A DNA stretch of 63,916 nt, filler included, from Basidioascus undulatus (taxonomy: Eukaryota): assembly GCA_000826855.1 (NCBI GenBank). It is 3 parts of 3 records of this genome, joined end to end, with 100 filler letters (N's around TTAATTAATTAA, not from the genome) between each part and the next. Parts side by side here need not be neighbours in the genome. Positions count along the whole stretch, not along the records: positions 42,822 to 63,916 come from JTLS01000342.1; 2 more parts are not named here. The stretch is one strand, 5' to 3'. Below the pieces are notes generated by a model, which was given only the letters and a program-made list of their open reading frames with translations, had not been told where the DNA came from and did no database searches. Each line of letters opens with the position of its first letter. Position 1 is the first letter of the stretch. The translations under genes were made by a program, and so were the position numbers. Shown piece after piece: positions 2,302-53,494 of the stretch.

Positions 2302-3569
2302 TGGATGGCTGCCCAGACCGTGTGACAGTCCAAATAAGGAGATAACTCATTTTAGTCCCTTTTTCCCTTAGACTTTACCTGACTTCTTGATGTCCTTCTG
2401 CTTGAGCCACCTTGACCAATTTTCTCCGCGCTCCTCCCACCATTCTAAACTTCGTTGTAGGCTTGTCTTGCTTGGCTCTCATCGCTACCCTCTCCCCTCT
2501 TTCTCCTCTCGCACTGACTCTTACACACCACTCACACATCTGCTGTACCACAATCAATTGAGAGATGAAAGTAAGAATTGGTCTGCTGCAATACCCTGGC
2601 AAGAGTGAGTGCGGCAGTCTTCAGTGCTTGTGTAGCAGGTGATTTGCAGATCTGGTCTGGAAGAAGGGCTCCCTAGGCAGACTGTAACCGTACACACTGC
2701 ATGGCAGCTGGTCCTACCTGATGGTCTACAGAGTAGTAGCAATTGGTTGCTGCTTGAGCACTTTAGCTGAACTGGGTGAAAACAGGTTCAGGAGTTGGTG
2801 GGCAGCTTGGCTACACAAAATGAAACGACAGGTTGCACAGTATGTTGTCATGCTCAAGGGAAATGGCCAGCCAGATACACACCTAAAAGTACCAGTTGGT
2901 GTTAGTTCCAGCCTCACATCCATGTAGAGCCACTCTCTGATCCAGCAGCTCAAGCTTCGGCATTCTGGATTGCCTGCTCAATGACCTGCATGGCACAGAT
3001 GATGCCCTGGTTGTCCCACTTCTGGCAATGATCTGCAGCCCCAGCAGCACATTCTCAAACACTTCTGGCTTGTCTACATCCCAGCGCAGGCTGTCAGTCA
3101 ACTTTGCCTTGCTTGGGAAGAGAGATAGGTGTAAGGAAGAGGAAGTGGTGTGCACAGGCTTCGTGCTTCACCCTATCGAACTTGCTCAGTGGAATAAAGT
3201 CCGTCGCGACGGGTCGAGTGCCGTGGACAAGCTGAGTGGCATGGGGAAAACAGCATGGGGGTAGTCAAGCATGTTGAAGACAGTGGTGTAGCCCCAGTAT
3301 TTACTGTATATCACAATAGGTATGTAAGGGAAGGGGGAGGGGTAGAGGATGAGAACGGCACACACGCAGTGTTGTTGTGTTGTAAGGCCACAGCTATGTT
3401 GGGCCGGGCATGGGCCCGCGTTCCTGGTTCTGCCGCCAACTGCGGACGAATATTTAGTCGTATGTCTTCTCTTTCTTTCCTGTTTTTCCTCACACTTGTA
3501 CTCTTTGTTACGCTTGCGATACGCCGCATAGCAGTTGCTATTAGTGTTCTATGAGACGCAATAGACAGG

Positions 3570-4830
3570 TGTCTCATGAGGTCTACGGGACCTTTCACGT
3601 GTGCCGCTGCAGGGCTGGGGCGAGCGGGACAGAGCAGGACGTCGAATCCGCCTCTGTTCCCGTGCTTGAGATATGCCCTCCGCTATTGGTGCGCGGTAGT
3701 GGGGGTGGCCCCCGGTCAGCATTTTACTCTGGACAATGGGAGAGGTGAAAGGACTGATGTAGTCGTTGCGGGCCATGGTGGCCTGAGGAGGAGGGGTCAA
3801 AGTCATTCAGTGCCAGACAGCCAGGGATGGGATCAGATGGGGAGGAATGACCTACTGCCCACATGTCATGCATGGTGTTCCCATGCGGCCTGGAGCACAC
3901 ACTCAGGCAGTGGCAGGAGCGGCTCGCCTGATGCAGCAAGGATGCTCCGCAGCCGTGAGCCGCCGTCCTGGTAGTACAGTCCGCGCTACCACCAGCCTAC
4001 ATAGGGCCAGTCAGTTCGTCATCCCTGTCTGGTAGAGGAGCGTGGCTTACGATGATTTAGTAACCCTTCATGTGGTCCCGCCCCTGCCACTCGACAAGCT
4101 TGACCTTATCTCCCGCACTGCGCAGGCGGTCAATGGCACACACCAGCGCCCGCCGGACAGGAGGCTGCGGGCGGACAACACCGTCGTGGCGCATCGCACC
4201 AACGCAGAGCTTGCGGCTCTCGCGCTCCCACGCGCCTTCAGGTGTCCAGGGCTTGTCAATGAGCAACGGGTCGATGCGGTGCAATGCCGCGGACAGAATC
4301 AGGGACATGAAGAGTTCAAGGTCCCGAATGGAGAGCGCCATCTTTCGGGTGGGGTAGGAGTATCAGTATACAGGAAACTGAAGCTGACGGTGGGCGAAGA
4401 ACGCACAGGACCGGCGACGCCGATGATGGATTTGCGGCCCGGCATTGTCTGAATTATGGGTGGTCCAGCAAGACAAAAACGCAAGGCCACAATCTTCAGC
4501 ACGCACTGCACCGGAGCCTCCGTCCGGAACGCGCCTCCACATCAGGCGCAGCGTGTAGATCGCCGCAAGTTGCAGCGGGCGAGCTGACTGACAGGGGAAC
4601 ATCAGTGAGCTGGACCAGGCCCTGTTGAACAGGGAGCGCGTGGGACGCACTGACCGGAACCGCCAATGTCGGCTGGTGGGAAGCGGAGCGCCGGGTCAGA
4701 AAGCTGCCATGAGGCGGGTGCACATACATGGTCCAACAACTCACTGCCGAAGCCGAGCGGGGAGCTAAGCATCGCGATCAGAGCGCCGTCTCTCGGTTCT
4801 CTGGATGGTGAGCTCCGTTTCGGATACTCT
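3570..4830 (-). pseudogene. Amidase-signature (AmdS/acetamidase-like) pseudogene
   Basis: Fragments in several frames: GALIAMLSSPLGFG/T-DIGGS, SPAATCG, KSIIGVAGP/MALSIRDLELFM, KLCVGAMRHDGVVRPQPPVRRAL and DGGSRLRSILAASGEPLLPL. The GGSSGG motif is destroyed, the frames are interrupted and no 5' part is visible. Confidence 0.75.
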
Positions 4831-21330: not shown

Positions 21331-21430
21331 NNNNNNNNNNNNNNNNNNNNNNNNNNNNNNNNNNNNNNNNNNNNTTAATTAATTAANNNNNNNNNNNNNN
21401 NNNNNNNNNNNNNNNNNNNNNNNNNNNNNN
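21331..21430. other. Artificial contig linker (Ns with a six-frame stop TTAATTAATTAA)
   Basis: 100-bp N run with TTAATTAATTAA at 21375-21386. The lipase gene is cut and does not continue after it. Confidence 0.97.
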
Positions 21431-24200: not shown

Positions 24201-24939
24201 TAGTAATCGTACAAGCGGAACCACTCTCCGATGAGACTGTTGTACTGTCAGTCAAAACGTTCAGACCTGTTTCCTTGTCAGTATTACTGGATCGGCTGCT
24301 GGTACTGTAGCCACGCGACGGCTACAACATCGAACATCGACGGCCCAACCTGACACAGCCTGCTACGGTACAGTACTGACAGTCGGGCCTGAATCAAGGC
24401 CAGCAGTACGGCGCCCGAAGCATTGTGAGATAATAGCAGACTCAGGTTAGAACAGCCTACTGCAGTACAGTCAACCACCGTGACACTCGGAGTTCGGCGT
24501 TACTTGGCTGTTTTTTTGGGGGGGCCGTCAGTCAGTGCTTAAGCCCAAGAGGAATCGAACCTCTGCTTGGCAATTATCGGCTGCCCGTTCTGCCACGGAA
24601 TTATGGGCTTGGCTGCGTGCTTCCTTTACTGCCTGCAGGGTATCTTGAGACAATGACAGTGACGGACTCGCTGTCTGACACCACTTACTCGACTGCCTCG
24701 CACTGACTTGACCGACACGGCTGAGACTCGCAGTGGAAGCTCTACAGTTAAAGGGGAAAAGCCGTAATCTCGGGAGAGCACAAATGAATATAGAGACCCA
24801 GAATGCTGGATTACGAGGCCGCCTTGGCTGCGAGGGTGGCATGCAGTGTTCAGATAGGACGTACCATCGGCAGACTGGAGTCGGGGCCGTTCCACGTTGT
24901 TGTGATCAGCTATTCACCCGTCCCAATTAGCTAATCTCT

Positions 24940-42721: not shown

Positions 42722-42821
42722 NNNNNNNNNNNNNNNNNNNNNNNNNNNNNNNNNNNNNNNNNNNNTTAATTAATTAANNNNNNNNNNNNNNNNNNNNNNN
42801 NNNNNNNNNNNNNNNNNNNNN
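42722..42821. other. Artificial contig linker (Ns with TTAATTAATTAA)
   Basis: Same 100-bp linker, with TTAATTAATTAA at 42766-42777. Genes on either side are cut. Confidence 0.97.
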
Positions 42822-45800
42822 GGGAGATCGGGGAGGAGGAGGGAGAGGGGTGGGAGGCGCTCGCGGGGCTGCTCGAGGCGGGGAGGGACCGGGTGTTGGA
42901 TTTCAGGTGCGTGGATTGTGTCATTGGGTGGTCGGGCAAGTGTTGAATCAGGTGGACGTTGTAGGTTCCGTGACGGCAGCGTTTTTACCCTCCCCTTCGC
43001 GACGCCCACCACCCCCTGCAAATCCTCCCCTCCGCGCACCGCCCCGCTCAGCCTCTCCTCCTACTCGACCCTCCTCTCGCGCCTCCTCTCGCGCTACCCC
43101 TCCTACCCCCCGACACTCTCCTCCCTCCTCCTCTCCCTCTCCGCGCACCTGCCCGAGCCCACCGCGCTCGCGCTCATCCGACACTCCGCCACCTCCGGCG
43201 CGTGCATCCCCTCCTCCCCCAACTGGCTCCAGAATGTCCGTGCCCTCGTCGAGCGCTTCTACCTCGGCCCTGCCGCGCGCCCGCCCACGCGCGTCGCGGT
43301 TGCGAGGCTGCTGTTCGAGCATGTCGTCGAGGGGACGAGGGACGTGCCGGTTTTCAGGGAACAGTTCTTAAGCCGCATATTGCTTCCCTTGCTGGAGCAG
43401 ACGCTCGCGGATGAGACGGACCTGGAGATCGAGGCGATGGCATGGGAGTACTTGGGATTGGTCGCGGTCGGGGAGGCGGTGGAGGAGGATGAGGAGGAGC
43501 GCCGGAAGAGGGACGAGGTGGGCGAGCGCCTGCCGGACAAGGAGCCCGCGCCGGCGAGGGGCGAGTACGGCGCGGACCCGCCCGACAGCGGCGACGGCGG
43601 CGACGGCGGCGTTGGGGAGTCCAAGTCGATCTCGACCGCGTCGGACGACTCGGGCTCGATCCCCTCTGTCCTCGGCGGGGCGGATGCCGCGCGCCCCGTG
43701 ACTTTTGAGCGGATTCGCGCACTCCTCAACACCCTCGCCCGGCACCGCGACCCGTCCGAGCCCCCGAGCCGCCAGCCCGCGGCATACTCGATCTCCCCCG
43801 GCGAGATCCGCGTCCCCGCCGACGCGCCCCTCACGATGATGAGCCTCGTCAGCGCCCCCGCCGCCCAGCGCATCACGTCCCCGCGCCCCGGGACCGTCGG
43901 CCTCCCCCCCATCCCGGCAGATGGCGAGCCGTCCACGGCGACGACGACGACGGCGACGCGCTCCAAGTCCCTCGGCGCGGTCCTCACGCTCATCAACGTC
44001 TTTGACAAGCTCGCGTTCTCCCCGCCCCACTCGCTCACGACGAGCAAGCTCGCGCGCGCGCCTGCCTCGAGACGCTGCATCCTCATCTGGAGGGACCTCC
44101 TCGCGCTCCTCGCGCCCGCGTCCAAGGTGCCCTCATCCGTCGACTCGCCCCCGCTCGCCGCTGCGGACCGCCCGCCGCAGATCTCGAGCCGCGCGAGACT
44201 CGCGATCCTCCAGTTCTTCTTTCGCCTCCGCGCGGACAGGGACCACCGCATCTTCCCCGACAAGGACATGGACGAGGCTATCATGCCCACGGCGTCGATC
44301 CTCCACCGCGTGCACCTGGCCGAGACGATCCCTGCGAACGAGCAGGCCGAGGAGCGGCTCCGCCGTGCGATGAGCGTCCGCTCTCCGCCTGCCCCCGCGT
44401 CCGAGAACGGCGGCAGCGAGCGCGGGCGGGAGGCGCGTCGGCGTTCGAGGGACATCGAGCGCTCGAGGGACCGCAGTCGGAGTGCGTCGCGCGCACCTGT
44501 CGCCCGCGTCGCGCAGGAGATCCTCTGGAGCGTGCCCGAGTCGCTCCCGTTCAAGCTCACGCAATCGCAGCGCCCCGCGGTGGGGCTCATCACGTGGGAC
44601 GCGTCCTGGGGCGCCAGCGGGGAGGATGTGGCCGGGCGGCAGGTCGTCCCTCTGCCCGTGTCCGAGTACGTGCGCACGCTCGTCGCAATCCTCGAGCACG
44701 AGCGTGACTGGGAACTCGTCTCGTACGTGCTGTGCCACCTACCCGTCCAGCTGGCCAACAAGAACTTTTTCTCGGGCCCGCGCGCGTCGACCGAGATCCG
44801 CGCGCTCCGCTCCGCCCTCTGCGCAGGCATCCTCCGGGACCGCCTCGGCGAGAGCGTGCTCCTGCCCCCCGGGATCAAGCGGACGGAGGTCCACGCGGTC
44901 ACGTACCAGACGCTGACGACGCTGATCGCGTACCGGCCGCTGTTCGACAAGGCCCAGCACGACGAGATGGTCGAGGCGTTCATGCAGGGCTTGAGCATGA
45001 GCCACCTCACGGCGCGGCCGTGCGTCCACGCGCTCGTCATGTGCTGCTACGAGCTCCAGCCGAGCATGACAAAGTACATCTCGGCCGCGCTCCACAAGCT
45101 CTCGCAGGTCATGTCCGCCGCGAGCATGGGCTCCCACATTCTGGAGTTCCTCGTCGCAGTCGGACACATCCCCCCGCTCTACGCCAACTTTACGCAGGCG
45201 GAGTACCGCCTTGTTTTCGGCCTCGCGCTCAAATACATCGAGCACCACCATACGGCGCTCGCGGAGCGCAAGCTCGAGCAGGAACGCTTCCCCGATCGCT
45301 ACCGCCCGCTGTCGTCCGGCGAGCAGGCCCTCGCGGAGCACGTCTTGCTGATGGCCTACTACACCGTGCGTCTCCCGGACTACTTCCCTTCATTGGCTGG
45401 GTTTCTGACGTGTTTGGGCCGTTCACGCTTGCAGATCTACCTCTGGTTCCTCTCCATCCGGCTCGCGGACCGTGCGCGCTACGTGCCCATCATCGTGCGC
45501 GGCCTGCTCGTCGCAGCAGAGCACACGGGGGCGGTCGACGAGCAGTCTGAAGTCTGCTTCGACATGATCATGCGCTACGCATACTCGAACGTCAACCCGC
45601 GCACCATCCGCTCGCCGCTCTCCGACCTCGTCGTCGCCGGCGGTGGCAAGAAGCCCGCGACCGTCAACGTCAAACACTGGATCCAGGGCAACGCAGTCGT
45701 TTCGGTCGAGGCGCTCGACCGCGCGGGCTGGGCACAGGTCGTCGTTCGCCGGCCCTCGGGCACGATGACCATGCTGTGCAAGCTCGAGAACGTCCCGCTC

Positions 45801-47107
45801 GTCGGAAGGGAGGGAGACCTCCTCGACATGACGTCGGTGCATACGCTCTTGACGACCGGCTCGGCCCCGCCTCAGCCGCAGCCGACCGCTTCGAGCAGGG
45901 TCATTCGCGCGCCGCCGCTCTTCCCGGACGAGGAGCAGGCGGAGGAGCCCAAGGCGGAGGAGGCGCCGACGGAGGAGGTTTGTCGGTCTTGCCTGTTGGC
46001 CTGTTGAAGACGCACAGCTGACTGTTGCTTTGGGTGGTTTCAGAACGATCCGACCTCGTCCGCGTCCGAGAACGCCCCTCCCACCCCCGCTCCCGCCCCT
46101 GCTGAGCCCAGCGGGCCGCAGCCGACGCTGTCCAAGGACCTCCTCATGCCCGGGCACCTCGCGCTCCAGCTGTCGACCTACCCGGACATCAGTGCGACGC
46201 ATCCCCGCGCGCGGCTCCTGCCGAACGACGCGGCCTGCGAGCGGTTCATCCGCGGGCTGGATTCGCACCAGGTCGTGGACTCGCACAAGATTGGCGTGCT
46301 TTTCGTCGGGCGCGGGCAGTCGTCCGAGACGGAGATCCTGGGCAACACGCAGGGGTCGCCGCAGTACGTTCGCTTCCTGTCGCGCCTCGGCAACCTCATC
46401 CGCCTCAAGGGCCACGAGGGTTACACGGGCGGGCTAGATCGCGAAACGGACATGGACGGGAAATATGCGTACGCGTGGTGGGACGACATCGACCAGGTCG
46501 TCTTCCACGTCGCGACGCTCATGCCGAACCACGCGCACGACCCGCAACACCGGCACAAGAAGGCGCACATCGGCAACGACTTTGTGCGTATCGTATGGAA
46601 CGGCTCCGGCCTGCCTTACGCGCTCGACACCGTCAAGTCCCAGTTCAACTTCGTCAACATCCTCATCTCCCCGCATTCAAAGGGGGTCCCCGTCCACCGC
46701 CCGCTCGGTGCGCCCGAGCACGTCAACGACGAGGACTTCTACCGTGTCGAGCTCCAGCGCCGACCGGGAATGCCGGACTTTGGCCCGCTCGGCAACTTCA
46801 AGATCGTCTCGACCGAGGCCCTCCCGCACGTCATCCGGCAGATGTCCCTTTTCGCCGACCTCCTCTCCCAAGTCTATGTCCAGGTCGAGGAGAACCTCGA
46901 GTTTGTCTCAAGCTGGCGGAGGGTACGCGTCTGCTTTTTCGCGCCTGTCCTCATCCGCATCCCGTTGCTGACTTGTCTCCGCTCTCACAGCGCCTGCAAG
47001 CGATCAAGCTCTACCGCGACCGCCTTCCGCCGCCCGTGGACGACGGGCCGCCGCCCGACGGCGTCCTCGGCCAAGAGGCCTCGCGCGACTTCTCGCGCTT
47101 CGTCTGA
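42822..47107 (+). CDS. TSC2: Tuberin (Rheb GAP), 5'-truncated
   Basis: Tuberin domain (LEHERDWELVSYVLCHLPVQLANK, CVHALVMCCYEL, HILEFL...LYANF) plus Rap-GAP domain (HKIGVLFVGRGQ...EILGN, YTGGLD, VVFHVATLMP, KKAHIGNDFVRIVWN). Ends RDFSRFV*. Confidence 0.95.
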
Positions 47108-47594
47108 GACACCTCTCGGAATCGGAGGATCCTCCTTACCATCTTACTCTTCCCATACTCCCTGCTTTCCCCTCCTCTTCCTCCGCATCCGGATACCGCG
47201 GCGCTTTCTCTCCCACACGCCCGACGTGGTCTCCAAGCGACGTTGCCTTGGTACACTTCGTCTCAACGATCGTTTCGTATCCTTCCGCCTGCATCTTGTT
47301 TTCGCGATTTGTTTTCAACTCATGTTCTTGTATGCATTGTCCGCAGCGCAGTCAAAGTGAATGCCGGCTATCGCCGCAGACGTAGTCTTTTCGTGTTTCA
47401 TTTTTTGCGTGGCGCTCGATGCGATTTGCGTTCAGCTATCCACGATTTGTGGACACGGTTCAGTTCGGACAGTCTGATGGCAGAAGGCGCAGATAACGAA
47501 TCATGATAAGCACACTCTCGACGCAACGAACGAGAGACAAGGTCCTTGGAAGATATTTCAACGCCCGTACTGGTTAATTCGTCAGAAACTCCCA

Positions 47595-47636
47595 CCGCAT
47601 GTCCCACAATGTTATCTCCCGCATGTCTCACAATGT
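47595..47636. repeat. Tandem duplication with 24-bp period
   Basis: CCGCATGTCCCACAATGT at 47595 and CCGCATGTCTCACAATGT at 47619. Confidence 0.7.
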
Positions 47637-48129
47637 CTCTAAGTATCGTCGCCGCACGCCGCAGACTTTCACTTCTCCCCCACAGCCGCCTCTTCCTTCA
47701 GCCACGGGTCCAGGTATGGAAATGGTCAGAAGAGGGACAAGCATTCTCCAGGTCTGGGGTATCGACCTCCATGCAGTGCACGTACTTAACATCACGTAAT
47801 GCTTGTATATGCTTGTTAATTCGGACGTCCGCTGGAGCAATGGCCGACATCTTGACCACCGCCCGCTCAGGCACCCGTCGCTATGCTCGTCGATGCGTTC
47901 GGTTTGACAGCTGGGCATGGTCCAAAAACATTGCACCTCACGCAATATCATGTATACCGTAATGCCTTTGAGGAGCTTTCTTTTGCAGAGGACAACCCTT
48001 TCAATCGGCGAGTGGGCAAGACTGTTTCACCAGCGCAGAGCCAAGTTGGCAGTTTTACGCAGACACCGCACATGCATTACATCGAGAACTCAGTCATCAG
48101 AAACAGTATAAGCGCCTCGGGAATTCTTA

Positions 48130-49160
48130 TTTTCAGTGCGCATCTTTCTGCTTCTCAGTGCCTCTGCGCACCCTGTTCTTTTTTGTCTCGGGTGCCTCCA
48201 CGCACATGCCTGCCTTTCGGTTGGTGTTTATCGCATTCCCATACCTTCCATTGCCTTCTCCGTTTAGTGTGGTGTCCTTGTACGTTTGGTGTGATGTCCT
48301 TGTACACCACCGTTCTTCTTTTTCTTTCCTCAGTGCCGCCGCGCACTGCTCCTTTTGAGTCCATCACTGCATACCACCGATTCCTCTCCGCAGCTCTCCG
48401 CAGGCAGGTCGCAGATCTCCACGGCGTCTTCTTCAAGGTCTCGGTATTGAACGGGGTGCCTCTGCTGCTCACCACTGTCTGTCCTTCTGCTCTCGTGCCT
48501 CAGCGCACTCGTTGCTTCTTTCATCCGGGGGGTGCCTTGACGCACTCCCCTCCCCTTTGTTCAAGTGTTATGGGAATTCCCTTGTGTTCTGCTTCCCTTT
48601 TATTTTAGTGGGGTGCCACCACTCACTGCTGTCTTTCTCTTCCCTTCTTTGGTGCCGCCGTGCACTGCTGCTTTCGAGCTTCAACCCTATTCGACCTTCC
48701 TTGAGTCCTGCGCGCACACATTACTGAGTCCTCTGCCCAGGCCGGGAATTTCCACAGTGTCTTCTTCTTCAAACCCGCGGTATTGACACAGGGTGTCTCT
48801 GCGCGCCACCGTTCGTCCAGTGCTCTGCGCACTCGGCTGCTTCCTTTCGCTTCGGCGCCTCACCGCACTCGGTTCTTTCTTTCCTGCATTTGGTACATCT
48901 GCGCACTTGCCTTATCTTGAATAGGCTTTACCGTACATTCCCCTGTGTCTTATTTTCTTCTACATCTAGGGTCGTGTCTCCGTGCACCATCACCCTGTTT
49001 CCCCTTCCTCGTGCCGCATCGCACTGCTCCTTCCGACCTGCCTTGAGTGCATTCGCGCACACACCACTGTTACCTTCCTTGAGTCCCTTAATGCTGCAAC
49101 ATTCCTTCAAAGTGGTATCAACAAGTTTCTTTATGTTGTTAAGGCGCCTCAGCGCACTTC
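48130..49160. repeat. Hierarchical non-coding array: GTGC-N6-GCAC palindromic cores about every 37 bp, in ~340-360 bp higher-order units (about 3 copies)
   Basis: Cores at 48158, 48192, 48333, 48456, 48495, 48532, 48613, 48652, 48793, 48820, 48855, 48893, 48974, 49011 and 49144. Shared landmarks CTTCAA..GGTATTGA at ~48428, 48764 and 49103, and ATTCCC at ~48235, 48576 and 48937. Confidence 0.8.
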
Positions 49161-49808
49161 TGGTACCGCGGTCATCTCCCCAGGCCGTTGTATCGCTTCG
49201 ACACAATGGCTTCCACTGAAGTTCATTTCTGGTATCCCCAGCTACCACTGCTTTTAATTGGGGAGATTTCCCCCACGTAATAATAATTCTTAGGTCCCGC
49301 GACACTGCGAGCGTACATATACAGCAACACGTCCGACCACTGTCATCGACGCCCAGACCACTAACCGTCTCTGGGGGCGTCTCTGGGGGAGAGGAACAGT
49401 GCCCGGTTCTTAATGACACCGTTTAGCCACTTGGCGCTTCAAATTCACGCATAGCTAGTGAACAAAGTCTGTGTCGTTTACCAGCTCGGACCACAGCGCA
49501 CCAGACTCAAGTTGTCGCGGTTACTGCCCTTGCCTTGGTTCGGTTCCCTCGCCTTTTTTCCCTTAGAGATACACAGGCGGCCTAACAGTTTTTCCGAAAC
49601 TCAGCAGCCCGCGACCTCGTGAGCAGTGGTTTGATCGTTGGCACATGTCGAAGGTGGACTCCACCAAGTCCTCGCTCATCATCCCATCTGACGAACTATT
49701 GAGCTTCCAATGACTCCGCCCACGGCAGCATGAATTCTTTTTTCAACTGCACATCTTCACCTCCAATATTTACTATTCAGGTAGTCTTTAGATAAAGTGA
49801 AACGCATC

Positions 49809-49892
49809 GGCCTGATGGTCTAGTAGTATGATTTTCCCTTAGGGTGTTCAACTGTTTGGGAGAGGTCCCGGGTTCAATTCCCGGTTAGGCCC
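49809..49892 (+). tRNA. tRNA-Pro(AGG) with a 12-nt intron (49845-49856)
   Basis: Acceptor stem GGCCTGA/TTAGGCC, D arm TGGTCTAGTAGTATGATT, anticodon stem TTCCC/GGGAG with AGG at 49841-49843, T arm CCGGG-TTCAATT-CCCGG. The intron is at the canonical position one base 3' of the anticodon. Confidence 0.95.
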
Positions 49893-49897
49893 TTTTT
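49893..49897 (+). terminator. Pol III oligo-dT terminator of tRNA-Pro
   Basis: TTTTT immediately after the discriminator base. Confidence 0.8.
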
Positions 49898-50512
49898 CGT
49901 TCTTATTGCCAGCTTTCCTCGGCCACTGCGAAAAGCGAAGGGGGGTGTGAAAGAAGGGAGCGAGGCAGCGCAGTGCACTTCCGCTGTCAGATCTTTTTCG
50001 TGGCCACCCTTATGTAAGTATAGGCGCAGGTTACCGTTTGAAGAGGCTGTTGAGGGTTTCACAGTGTCAGGATGCTTAAGTGTGTCTGGATGTGGGTTCA
50101 TGAAGAAAAGGCCGGTCGCTGACACTGTCCCGTGTCAGTCCTGTGTCTTCTCAATGCGGCCGCTTGCCGTCCCGGTCTTCTCGTCGTCTTCTCGTCGAAT
50201 AGGAAGGACTGACAGGTTTTGAAAGTTCATCGAATGGAAGCACTGAAAGTCTTGGACGCATTGACCCTTGGGCAAGCCACTGGGATTACTGCGCGCAGGC
50301 CAAGACAATCGGCATGCTCGCACATCATTGGTCCTTTCTTCTCTCAGAGTCCGATGGAGCTTGCTCATAAGCATCAGCAGGCGATAGATATTGCAGCTCT
50401 GAAACAGTAAGGCGCTGAGCGGCGTCGCACACCTTGGGTTGAAGCAGTTGCCAGGCGCACGGAAAACGTCAAGTCGAGTCCCCAAACGCACTGCACCTCC
50501 CCAACGAAGCGC

Positions 50513-51157
50513 ATGCATCCAATCAGTCCATCCGTCCGTCAGTCCTCTATATCCGTATATCCATCCATCGATCTACTGTCCATCGATCTACCGTCCATCC
50601 CTCCCGGAGGTGCACCGCCTCACTTCGACCCCGCCCCGCACCAGCACCACGTCCAGTTCGCGCCGCCGCCGCCCGCGTCCCTACCCCCTCCGCCAGACCC
50701 GTTCATGACCGACATCTTCTCGCGCACAGGCTGGTGAGCCCTTCTCCTAAACACCCCATAGGCTTTTACCGCGCCGCTTATCACGCATGGGCTCGAGCTG
50801 ATGTCTCCGCTGTTTCTTAGGTACGCCGACGGCGACTTCGGCCTGCTCGGCGTCTCACCCGGGGCAGACGATGATGCGTTCCTCTCGCAGCTCCTGCGGC
50901 TCTCGCACCCGCACCAACAGCAGCCGCACCAACCTCCTCCGCACCATGCGCATCCGCCCCCACACCAGAACCACCATCCCCATCCTCATCCCCCGCCCCC
51001 GCCCCAACCGCAACCTCAACCACCACAGCCTTCGCAACAACCGGCCCCGCCACAACCGCCGCAGGAGCTCGGCCCGACCACGCCCGGCGGGAGCGGGCTG
51101 GACATACTCGCCCTCGCGTCGGAGCAGGGCGCGGCGGAGGGATGGAGAGGACGGTGA
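50513..51157 (+). CDS. Short two-exon Pro/Gln/His-rich ORF resembling a transcription-factor C-terminal tail; possibly a fragment
   Basis: PPPPDPFMTDIFSRTG(W) / intron ~50734-50820 / YADGDFG...QPPPHH...GLDILALASEQ. Codon usage is GC-rich like the genuine genes. No DNA-binding domain is visible upstream. Confidence 0.45.
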
Positions 51158-51760
51158 TGAGATTTGATTGAGCGCGTTTATTGTACTGGCTGGACGCTTG
51201 CGTGCAAATCGCGATGGAAAGAAGTAGGAAAAGCTGTGCTTCCGCGAACGGCCACGAATGGCTTCCGGTACGTGGAAGCCGCGAAAGTGACTGTGAGATA
51301 GAAAGCCCGTGGAGTGCGGAGCGAACAGCTGCCTCTCCAGACCGCCGCGCTACGTGAACGGACTCGACATTCAGTACAGCAAGGGTCGTGTCTCGCCGGC
51401 TGCTTCGTTTTGACTGTGAATCAGTCAGAATTTACCGACTCCAAATCTGGCAGGGACAGCTGGAGGACTCGAATCGACCTTGTAAATATATTAGGCTTCT
51501 CAGGTGACTTTTGCAAGCGCCAAAGGGGTTGCGGTTGCGAGGCCCGGTTCGCTGCCGCCTTCCTCGTCTCGCACGGGATCTTCGCGGCATACTTTCGCTG
51601 TTGTGCTGCTCCCTGCGGCCGTTTTGAAGAGGATAATTGACGTCCCATGACCATGGTTATCGCAGCAATGCAGGAGGAGCCGAGGCTGACTTCTCTAGCA
51701 GCGGCACCTCCGGCCCAAAACCAGTCATTGCAGGCTGCCCCGTCTTGCATATCCCGCCGC

Positions 51761-51825: not shown

Positions 51826-53494
51826 ATGCTTCTTAGTCCTCTCCTGTTCCTCTCTGTCCCCGCCCTCGTTCTTTCAGCCTCGCGTCTCACTCCGGCCTCC
51901 GGCGCTCTCGTCGTCCGCTCTGGGACGGCCTCCTCGAATGAGTATTCCACAGTTCAGAAAGCCGTAGACGCTCTGGGCAGCAACGGAGGAGAAATTTTTG
52001 TGTATGCTGGCACGTACAAGGAGCAGGTCTTTTCTAGAAAAGAAGGGAAAGGTGGTCATTACGGGCGAGACCGAAGACGACAGGCAAGTGGGCAGGATCA
52101 ACCTCGAACGTGGATACTCAGTCTGATGAGCTGGGAGAGCAGCGGATATGAGGGCAACAAGGTCACCATAACGGCGGGTGTGACTGCCGCTCAAGCGGGG
52201 TCCAACGATGCCTCGGGAACGCTGCGGTGAGTCTCTCGCTGAGTACTCCATTCCGAAAAAAAGTCAGCTTACGCAATTATTTTGGATGACCTTCCTCAGC
52301 GTTCAGTGAGTTTTCTGCTGCTTGTTAAACTGACTTTCGGACGTGATGGACTGACGATCTCGCCATGACAGCCAAGACAACTTTGAGCTCCGCAACATCA
52401 ACGTCGTCAACTCTGCGGGCGACGTCGGGCAGACCATTGCTTTGAGCGCTTACGGAGAGAAGCAGAGCTACTATGGGGTGGGTCTTTACGGGTACCAGGT
52501 GAGCAGAGAACATAGCTCTGTTCGCTGTTTCCCAAGGTACTCATGGACTTAGCAACCTGATAGGACACCCTGCTTGCCAACACCGGCAGCCAGTTCTTCG
52601 GGTCGTCCTACATTGACGGAGCCGGTGAGAACCTTTTGTTGATGAAAGTTATGCAGCGCACGCCACATCTTTGACGGCGCATCATCTTCCTCAAGTCGAC
52701 TTCATCTTCGGCCAACTTGCCAAGTCATACTTCTATGAGACGACAATTGCTTCGAAGGGGCCTGGTGTAAGTTTGACTACCAATACTGTACATTAAAAGA
52801 GCGAGATTTTCCTTCATGTTCACGCATTGGCGATACGTTCACAGCACATCACCGCCAACGGACGCACCGAGGCAAACGGTCCTTCCATCTACGTGATCGA
52901 CAACTGGTGCGTATTGAGTTGACAATCTGCCCTTCTGCTGGCCAGCTGATCTTTGGTGCATATCCAGTGACATTGTTCGCCATTTTCGGCTGTACCACTC
53001 ACTTCTGTGCGATTTCTGAACTGCTTGCGATATCCACCAGGTGCTCGCCAGTAACGCTGAATCCAGGACGTCAGGCGGGGTCGACCTTGGTCGCCCATGG
53101 CGTCCGTACGCCCGCGTCGTCTATCTCAACTCTCGTATCGGAGGGCACGTCAAGCGGGAGGGATGGAGTATCTGGAACTCTGGCGACGAGCGCACGGACG
53201 GTGTTCTCTTTGCGGAGTACAATAACAGTGGAGATGGTGAGCGTTATGGTATCTCATCAGATATGGGGAGTTGTGCTTGATGTCCATACGCATGATTCAA
53301 AAAATAGGTGCTTGGAACAGCAACCGAGTGTGAGTTAGAAGCAGTTCGCTTGTGCTCATTGGTACCGTGAACAGAGAGCTGACGTTTAAGGTATCCAGGT
53401 CGTTCGCGAATCCGAGAGCGAGGCGGCCTCCTACAGCGCTGCAAAGATTCTTGACAGCATCAGCTGGATCGATACGGCATACTACCACGCTTGA
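51826..53494 (+). pseudogene. Secreted pectin methylesterase (CE8) with two apparent frameshifts
   Basis: Signal peptide, YSTVQKAVDAL, IFVYAGTYKEQV, GSNDASGTLR, QTIAL, GYQDTL, GAVDFIFG, LGRPWRPYARVVY, FAEYNNSG and SWIDTAY. There is an extra T at ~52030-52033 and a frame change at ~53410 in the last exon. Confidence 0.85.

Follow-up and report, generated by a model that had tools for sequence, protein, structure and literature searches.

The array and its setting

The DNA analyzed here is a 63,916-nt stretch (filler included) from the Basidioascus undulatus assembly GCA_000826855.1, referred to throughout as the window, and the element in question is an array of short repeats at positions 48130-49160 of it. 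The window looks like gene-dense nuclear DNA of a fungus-like eukaryote, with a GC content of ~0.5-0.7, and we infer the label "fungal" from its gene set. The array sits in a gap of ~2.7 kb without recognizable genes, between a Tsc2-like gene on the left, whose stop would lie near 47107, ~1 kb ahead of the array, and a tRNA-Lys(CTT) gene on the right. Its hallmark is a 14-nt core of the form GTGC-N6-GCAC, that is, two inverted 4-nt arms around a "loop" of six. Cores are lettered by slot and numbered by the large unit in which they lie, and the pattern just given is the exact one in the following list.

48130..49160, + strand: whole array, a pyrimidine-rich, non-coding, decayed higher-order tandem repeat
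48130..48466, + strand: unit 1, with cores at 48158, 48192 and 48333 and variants at 48136 and 48456
48467..48826, + strand: unit 2, with cores at 48495, 48532, 48613, 48652 and 48793 and gapped variants at 48706 and 48820
48827..49160, + strand: unit 3, with cores at 48855, 48893, 48974, 49011, 49047 and 49144
48136..48143, + strand: truncated core-like remnant at the left edge, arms fused and without a loop, read from the sequence
48158..48171, + strand: core A1, GTGCCTCTGCGCAC, exact pattern
48192..48205, + strand: core B1, exact pattern
48333..48346, + strand: core D1, exact pattern; its flanks lengthen the stem to 6 bp
48456..48472, + strand: core variant with a center 3 nt longer and the 3' arm TCAC; aligns with F2 and F3 in the three-unit alignment (A1)
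48495..48508, + strand: core A2, exact pattern
48532..48545, + strand: core B2, exact pattern; the sole site that also scores on the - strand
48613..48626, + strand: core C2, variant with the 3' arm TCAC
48652..48665, + strand: core D2, exact pattern
48706..48718, + strand: core variant one base short in the E slot of unit 2, read from the sequence; repeat family D20
48793..48806, + strand: core F2, variant with arms GTGT...GCGC
48820..48832, + strand: core variant one base short in an extra subunit of unit 2; aligns with the A1 core; families D6 and D17
48855..48868, + strand: core A3, variant with arms GCGC...GCAC
48893..48906, + strand: core B3, variant with arms GTAC...GCAC, without a predicted hairpin
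48974..48987, + strand: core C3, variant with arms GTGT...GCAC
49011..49024, + strand: core D3, exact pattern
49047..49060, + strand: core E3, exact pattern
49144..49157, + strand: core F3, variant with arms GCGC...GCAC
42774..47360, + strand: upstream Tsc2-like gene, with Tuberin, DUF3384 and Rap_GAP domains on split open reading frames (ORFs)
49809..49892, + strand: tRNA-Lys(CTT) gene, 84 nt, ~650 bp downstream of the last core

Repeat architecture and copy number

The array consists of three tandem units of ~337-360 bp that are ~60% identical. When the region was aligned to itself, 48143-48680 matched 48482-49039 at 59.9% identity over 588 columns (E = 5e-22) and 48156-48354 matched 48818-49032 at 62.8% identity (E = 4e-9), at offsets of ~339-359 and 662-678 bp, and gapless repeat families recur at a spacing of 319-360 bp. 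The larger units of ~340-360 bp described in a first-pass annotation of this DNA are thus borne out by the self-alignments and by the spacing of the families. The mean column identity of the three-unit alignment, in which the phase of unit 1 was set arbitrarily, is 67%. Unit 3 is the most diverged copy and is rearranged at its 3' end.

The smaller period is far less regular. Cores had been described as recurring about every 37 bp, which fits 6 of the 13 intervals between the 14 sites found by weight matrix, or 8 of 17 when the variants are counted (34-39 bp), and fails for the others, which range from 22 to 162 bp. The autocorrelation at lag 36 is weak (z = 1.9). No array-wide period was reported by Tandem Repeats Finder, which returned only a 22-bp repeat of 2.4 copies at 48254-48305 and a 10-bp repeat of 2 copies at 48384-48403. 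The 22-bp micro-duplication is private to unit 1, where the three-unit alignment shows a 22-column gap in units 2 and 3, and its absence from those units indicates that slippage went on after the triplication.

The filler between the cores is CT-rich, low-complexity sequence, and the C+T fraction of the + strand is 0.67 in the array vs 0.51 in the window; pyrimidine-rich spacers had been noted earlier. Copies of the large unit are more alike than neighboring subunits. Over the 24 nt after the cores, the likeness between different slots is at the level of composition (mean z 0.03, n = 80, 6% above z 2), whereas the same slot compared across units averages z 1.2 (11 pairs) and is clear only in the D slot (z 2.5-4.4). 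The best-shift identity of the 12-nt flank is 0.67 on the right and 0.58 on the left in orthologous pairs, against 0.49 on both sides in paralogous pairs and 0.46 (right) at random positions. Filler likeness persists between some neighboring subunits, as in family D17 (75% over 24 nt, offset by 36 bp).

At a likeness of at least 80%, the array is single copy. In each of two ~35 Mb assemblies (X1 and X2), one contig covers 47400-49833 with 0 differences, and no extra depth was found on the array at that likeness. The tRNA part piles up in X1, where the mean word depth rises from 52 to 2377-4478, and a third run (X3) gave a match only at the tRNA end. Elsewhere in the window there is a single similar sequence, a 57-nt match with E = 0.011.

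At roughly even probability, we favor an explanation in which the array, lying in intergenic DNA between the Tsc2-like gene and tRNA-Lys, is an old single-copy tandem repeat of higher order that arose neutrally and is decaying neutrally. The data show that it is duplicated, single copy and non-coding; neutrality is inferred. Two rounds of local tandem duplication, by replication slippage or unequal exchange, would have built it: the first would have multiplied a short unit of ~36-38 bp, made of a GC-rich 14-mer followed by CT-rich filler, and the second would have triplicated a block of ~340 bp. The three blocks would since have drifted to ~60% identity, and the filler would have lost recognizable homology between subunits, probably via indels and slippage, so that the compositionally complex 14-mer would be what stays visible. 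On this reading, there is nothing exceptional about the array: tandem duplication in place, followed by decay, would produce it. The closest option in the first-pass annotation was a satellite beside a tRNA gene, here in the form of a decayed local triplication.

Repeat-induced point mutation (RIP) was also considered as a driver of the divergence. The RIP indices are 0.76 and 1.26, and transitions are about as frequent as transversions (67/51, 74/70 and 82/82), so the divergence was not RIP-driven.

Higher-order tandem repeats and minisatellites are well known, e.g., the higher-order repeats (HORs) of alpha-satellite and the sub-repeats of ribosomal DNA spacers. Like these, the array nests a putative subunit of ~36-38 bp in a unit of ~340-360 bp, head-to-tail and in one orientation, and is non-coding and locally duplicated. 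It differs in being a single 1-kb locus with three large units at ~60% identity, whereas the copies of classical HORs are near-identical. Its subunits share only a 14-mer, and it is missed by Tandem Repeats Finder.

Coding, mobile-element and guide-array tests

No reading frame spans the array, none of the 3 array ORFs has a Pfam family, and a spurious ORF of 241 amino acids (aa) across the array found no homolog at E <= 0.01 among 479 candidates. The array is therefore non-coding, as first annotated. A pseudogenized coding repeat of ~12 amino acids per subunit, on either strand, might be suggested by the equivalence of 36 bp to 12 codons and by + strand open frames of 250 aa and 163 aa. However, open frames are expected in the array, because stop codons are rare in CT-rich DNA. 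Subunit distances of 34-39 bp do not preserve the frame, the frame in which the motif falls varies from unit to unit, and a pseudogene would not keep the motif. Together with the missing family and homolog, these points make such an origin highly improbable.

Domains were scanned in 42 ORFs, namely 34 stop-to-stop frames, out of the 78 that reach 170 aa, and 8 ORFs around the array. No transposase, reverse-transcriptase, nuclease-type or effector-like domain was found in these, in line with the earlier statement that no effector nuclease or transposase gene was recognized in the contig. Terminal inverted repeats were sought in 46500-51500, where 6 inverted pairs occur (16-24 nt, 75-94% complementarity), none of which brackets the array.

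These results bear on a transposable-element remnant, either the subterminal array of a DNA transposon or tandem units resembling long terminal repeats, inserted near the tRNA gene. Short motif repeats in the same orientation occur in the subterminal regions of some DNA transposons, and the vicinity of a tRNA gene would suit such an insertion. Subterminal arrays of CACTA, hAT and Mutator elements likewise have short motifs at irregular short distances; the array differs from them in having no terminal inverted repeats and no transposase in the ORFs scanned, and in being single copy at a likeness of at least 80%. With one contig at that likeness in each of the two assemblies, no inverted repeats around the array and only the 57-nt match elsewhere in the window, a transposon subterminal array, proposed in the first-pass annotation, is rejected, and a remnant of any such element is very unlikely.

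A repeat-spacer guide array of the CRISPR or TIGR type in a eukaryote had also been raised. The short palindromic core and the 34-39 bp between some neighbors (~36-37 bp in some cases) recall such systems. CRISPR arrays, however, have near-identical, regularly spaced direct repeats of ~23-55 bp with unique spacers that are uniform in length, whereas the repeat here is a degenerate 14-mer (74% mean column identity over 14 aligned cores), the distances run from 22 to 162 bp, and the "spacers" recur in the three units. CRISPR and TIGR arrays adjoin an effector gene, encoding Cas or a Nop-domain Tas protein; the array has none among the ORFs scanned, and its gene context is eukaryotic. The guide-array reading was refuted on the defining features tested and retains next to no probability. 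Even taken together, the transposon, pseudogene and guide-array readings are improbable. A short quasi-palindrome that recurs at ~36 bp is, as a caution, not in itself a hairpin or guide-RNA array.

A directional 14-mer

Of the 10 exact matches to GTGC-N6-GCAC in the window, 8 fall within 48158-49060. Shuffling predicts 1.62 for the window as a whole (100 shuffles, maximum 4) and 0.0485 for 48130-49160 (2000 local dinucleotide shuffles, maximum 1). GTGC is the only 4-mer arm that recurs, accounting for 8 of the 9 hairpin-type sites of this form in the region. A weight matrix found 14 sites on the + strand in 48158-49144 and one on the - strand, overlapping 48532, and 4 further gapped or truncated variants were read at 48136, 48456, 48706 and 48820. 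The ten cores quoted in the first-pass annotation are all present where it placed them, and its count of 15 or more copies is reached with the matrix sites and the variants. In the rest of the window (62.8 kb, both strands), the matrix gave 13 matches at >=10 bits vs 11.1 +/- 3.4 expected and 4 matches at >=12 bits vs 3.2 expected.

The consensus of the 14 stacked sites is G-GTGCCTC-n-G-C-GCAC-T. Conservation is not confined to the arms: the "loop" positions 5, 7 and 10 are kept in 12 of 14 copies, the same as arm positions 2 and 4, and position 8 alone is free, with positions 1-7 and 9-14 conserved. Positions 5 and 10 are both C, so that the palindrome stops short of extending inward. The motif is a directional 14-mer with 4-nt inverted ends and not a true palindrome, which explains why the matrix scores on one strand only. 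The description of the cores as palindromic therefore holds for the 4-nt arms and not for the whole motif. A symmetric site for a dimeric protein, as proposed earlier, fits such a directional motif poorly.

The clustering and the anatomy of the motif would suit a homotypic cluster of putative DNA sites, with half-sites GTGCC and GCGCAC around a free center, in 14-18 same-orientation copies kept by selection. The clustering is extreme (8 exact copies vs 0.05 expected, and 14 matrix matches in the array vs 13 in the other 62.8 kb), and a single free position is what a bipartite protein site would show. The conserved positions 5, 7 and 10 are not explained by stems, because stems of 4 bp are too weak. 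On the other hand, the motif occurs no more often than by chance in the remaining 62.8 kb, its same-strand orientation is the plain outcome of tandem duplication, and no clear target gene lies next to the array. Nor do we know of any factor that has the 14-mer as its site, no site database having been searched. Considering these points and the conservation data below, we hold this reading possible but doubtful, and would say the same of its extension, in which the block would work as an enhancer or silencer, or would mark a chromatin boundary next to the tRNA gene.

Homotypic clusters of transcription-factor sites and tandem repeats in fungal promoters resemble the array in packing many copies of a short motif into 1 kb of intergenic DNA, where the motif seems better preserved than the filler. 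The array differs from them in that it has no known factor or obvious regulated gene and its motif is not enriched elsewhere in the window. Sites of the MRE, Aft1, Crz1, RFX, Abf1, bZIP, B-box and A-box types were compared with the consensus by eye, and none fits all copies.

RNA structure

If transcribed from the + strand, the array might instead belong to a long non-coding RNA (lncRNA) in which short GC-rich hairpins, or single-stranded protein-binding modules, are repeated between U/C-rich linkers, and which might be processed into short units. Isolated cores form hairpins of 4-7 bp with a mean of -5.0 kcal/mol as RNA vs -2.9 (sd 2.1) for shuffled 20-mers, several of them form in the minimum-energy fold, and the values as DNA are -2.2 vs -1.4. 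On the + strand alone, the G before and the T after the core could form an additional G-U pair, and the composition is strongly asymmetric between the strands.

Against this, the 697 nt of 48130-48826 show no excess folding stability on either strand (z = +0.17 for the + strand and -1.52 for the - strand, from 20 shuffles per strand), and the core stems are only 4 bp. Compensatory change was not observed: among the 14 aligned cores, 0 of the 4 core pairs are altered on both sides. Paired cells amount to 81.0%, vs 80.0% after shuffling, and 81.0% or more was obtained in 213 of 500 shuffles. A pair is lost in three of the six variant cores (C-A, A-C and C-T), and two others shift to G-U, one of them at two pairs. 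The only Rfam match over the region is to tRNA, even at E <= 1, and at gathering scores only the two tRNAs are found in the window. Selection on a stem-loop, put forward in the first-pass annotation, is not supported, given the lack of covariation, the fold z scores and the short stems.

A known likeness is the A-repeat of Xist, an lncRNA module of GC-rich short-hairpin cores with U-rich linkers. The array shares with it a GC-rich quasi-palindromic core followed by a pyrimidine-rich linker, at ~8-18 copies in one orientation. It differs in lying in a fungus-like genome and in showing no covariation or folding signal; no sequence similarity is claimed, and the array is known here from DNA alone. 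With its spacing irregular in addition, an lncRNA of this kind would be quite unlikely. We found no evidence that the array functions as RNA hairpins or guide RNAs, or that it is mobile or coding.

Conservation of the motif and neutral decay

The first-pass annotation held that the arms are better conserved than the loops and spacers. In the three-unit alignment, 79% of core columns (121/153) are identical vs 50% elsewhere (370/737), and the arms stand at 90% (78/87) vs 65% for the loops (43/66). When orthologous sites are anchored at the core and compared without gaps, the arms are 84-95% and the loops 65% identical, with 31% in the 5 nt to the left and 60% in the 5 nt to the right. Since the sites are recognized by their arms, the figures on arm conservation are partly circular. 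The least biased comparison defines the slots in units 1 and 2 and scores them in unit 3, where the arms are kept at 22/24 vs 9/14 for the loops and 9/12 for the flanks, and is only a trend (P = 0.077 for arms vs loops, Fisher's exact test). The claim is thus upheld in the partly circular comparisons and is reduced to a trend in unit 3, a weak result also for a cluster of selected sites.

Some of the contrast between core and filler is probably due to alignment. Gapless blocks that include spacers are ~75% identical (families D2, D4, D8 and D14), and complex blocks outside the cores are also kept between units (families D13, 77%, and D15, 83%), which suggests that part of the "50%" is misaligned, indel-prone filler. 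Much of the contrast of 79% vs 50% may be explained in this way. Neutral decay would then account for the better preservation of the motif, and this is the weakest step of our reading.

Several observations weigh against neutral decay as the full account. In paralogous slots, where the arms are 83-93% and the loops 56% identical, the flanks within 15 nt reach 28-43% in 5-nt bins vs a random expectation of ~28%. Over orthologous and paralogous slots, identity falls to 29-31% in the 5 nt directly left of the core. In the orthologous A, B and D slots, the arms are kept at 68/72 vs 35/54 for the loops (P = 3e-5), a contrast that is not an alignment artifact because the loops cannot be misaligned. 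Furthermore, paralogous cores resemble one another about as closely as orthologous cores do, a pattern not predicted under uniform neutral decay. These figures share the circularity noted above, and the least biased test is only a trend; a real constraint on the motif is possible. The sharp edges of conservation (84-95% in the arms vs 31% in the 5 nt to the left) and the likeness of paralogous cores are also what a cluster of selected sites would show.

Judging from the aligned copies, rate heterogeneity in favor of the 14-mer is likely, and some constraint on it as a putative protein-binding site is possible. If part of its preservation reflects real constraint, we would attribute that part to protein binding of the directional 14-mer at the DNA level. 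A stronger version seems unlikely to us: purifying selection would maintain the 14-mer, and the array would serve as a scaffold with a function, either as a block of ~14-18 directional protein sites beside the tRNA gene with a boundary or regulatory role, or as a fungal lncRNA similar to the Xist A-repeat. Its modules would then have been kept through the ancient triplication while the sequence between them was randomized. The motif is the point of interest of this locus, as it is 83-95% identical, whereas similarity is no better than random only a few bases away. Should comparative data confirm the contrast, the array would be a sharply bounded fungal cis-element or lncRNA module of a rare kind.

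Searches for relatives

The Rap_GAP part of the Tsc2-like protein was searched against metagenome contigs, with 93 pattern matches and 0 confirmed relatives. A two-core DNA pattern was found at >=120 loci in metagenome contigs and at 4 in viral contigs. Cores were counted in 124 pattern loci, and three of those richest in same-strand cores were read. Two of these (L099 and L105, from the same metagenome) are a regular 33-bp satellite and the third (L102) is a regular 38-bp satellite. All three contain GTGCC-N5-GCAC, without CT-rich filler or other likeness to the array. L099 and L105 carry GTGCCTCACCGCAC, which is one base from core A3. The 124 loci were treated as pattern-selected chance matches or unrelated satellites and not as relatives. 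In full-text literature searches, no paper among those listed describes a fungal array like this one, which is not proof of absence in print.

Other features of the window

Domains recognized on ORFs of the window include P-type ATPase, Cupin_8, BRE4, Sec23/24, copper amine oxidase, Tuberin, Rap_GAP, pectinesterase and UbiA, and they are split across ORFs in a manner that suggests introns. At 84 nt, the tRNA-Lys(CTT) gene has room for an intron. It belongs to a multi-copy family, as dozens of contigs stack on the gene with differing upstream flanks. Between the array and this gene, a perfect 12-bp direct repeat in two copies, CGTCTCTGGGGG, lies at 49366-49389. The other tRNA gene of the window is a tRNA-Ile at 24540-24610 on the - strand (Rfam tRNA, 45.9 bits), to which ARAGORN assigns the anticodon GAT. 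This anticodon is uncommon among nuclear eukaryotic tRNAs for Ile.

Downstream of the tRNA-Lys gene, an ORF at 50801-51157 (+ strand) has a long low-complexity tract rich in His, Pro and Gln and is without a Pfam family; it may be part of an unrecognized gene between the tRNA gene and a pectinesterase-like gene at ~51826-53280. A 17-nt inverted match of 94% complementarity links core D1 and its flank (48336-48352) to 51121-51137, 2.8 kb downstream within this His/Pro-rich ORF, and is probably chance in GC-rich sequence. Four runs of 44 N, taken as masked or withheld sequence, occur in the window as two pairs, each 12 bases apart (21331-21374 and 21387-21430; 42722-42765 and 42778-42821), and the second pair falls at the 5' end of the Tsc2-like gene region.

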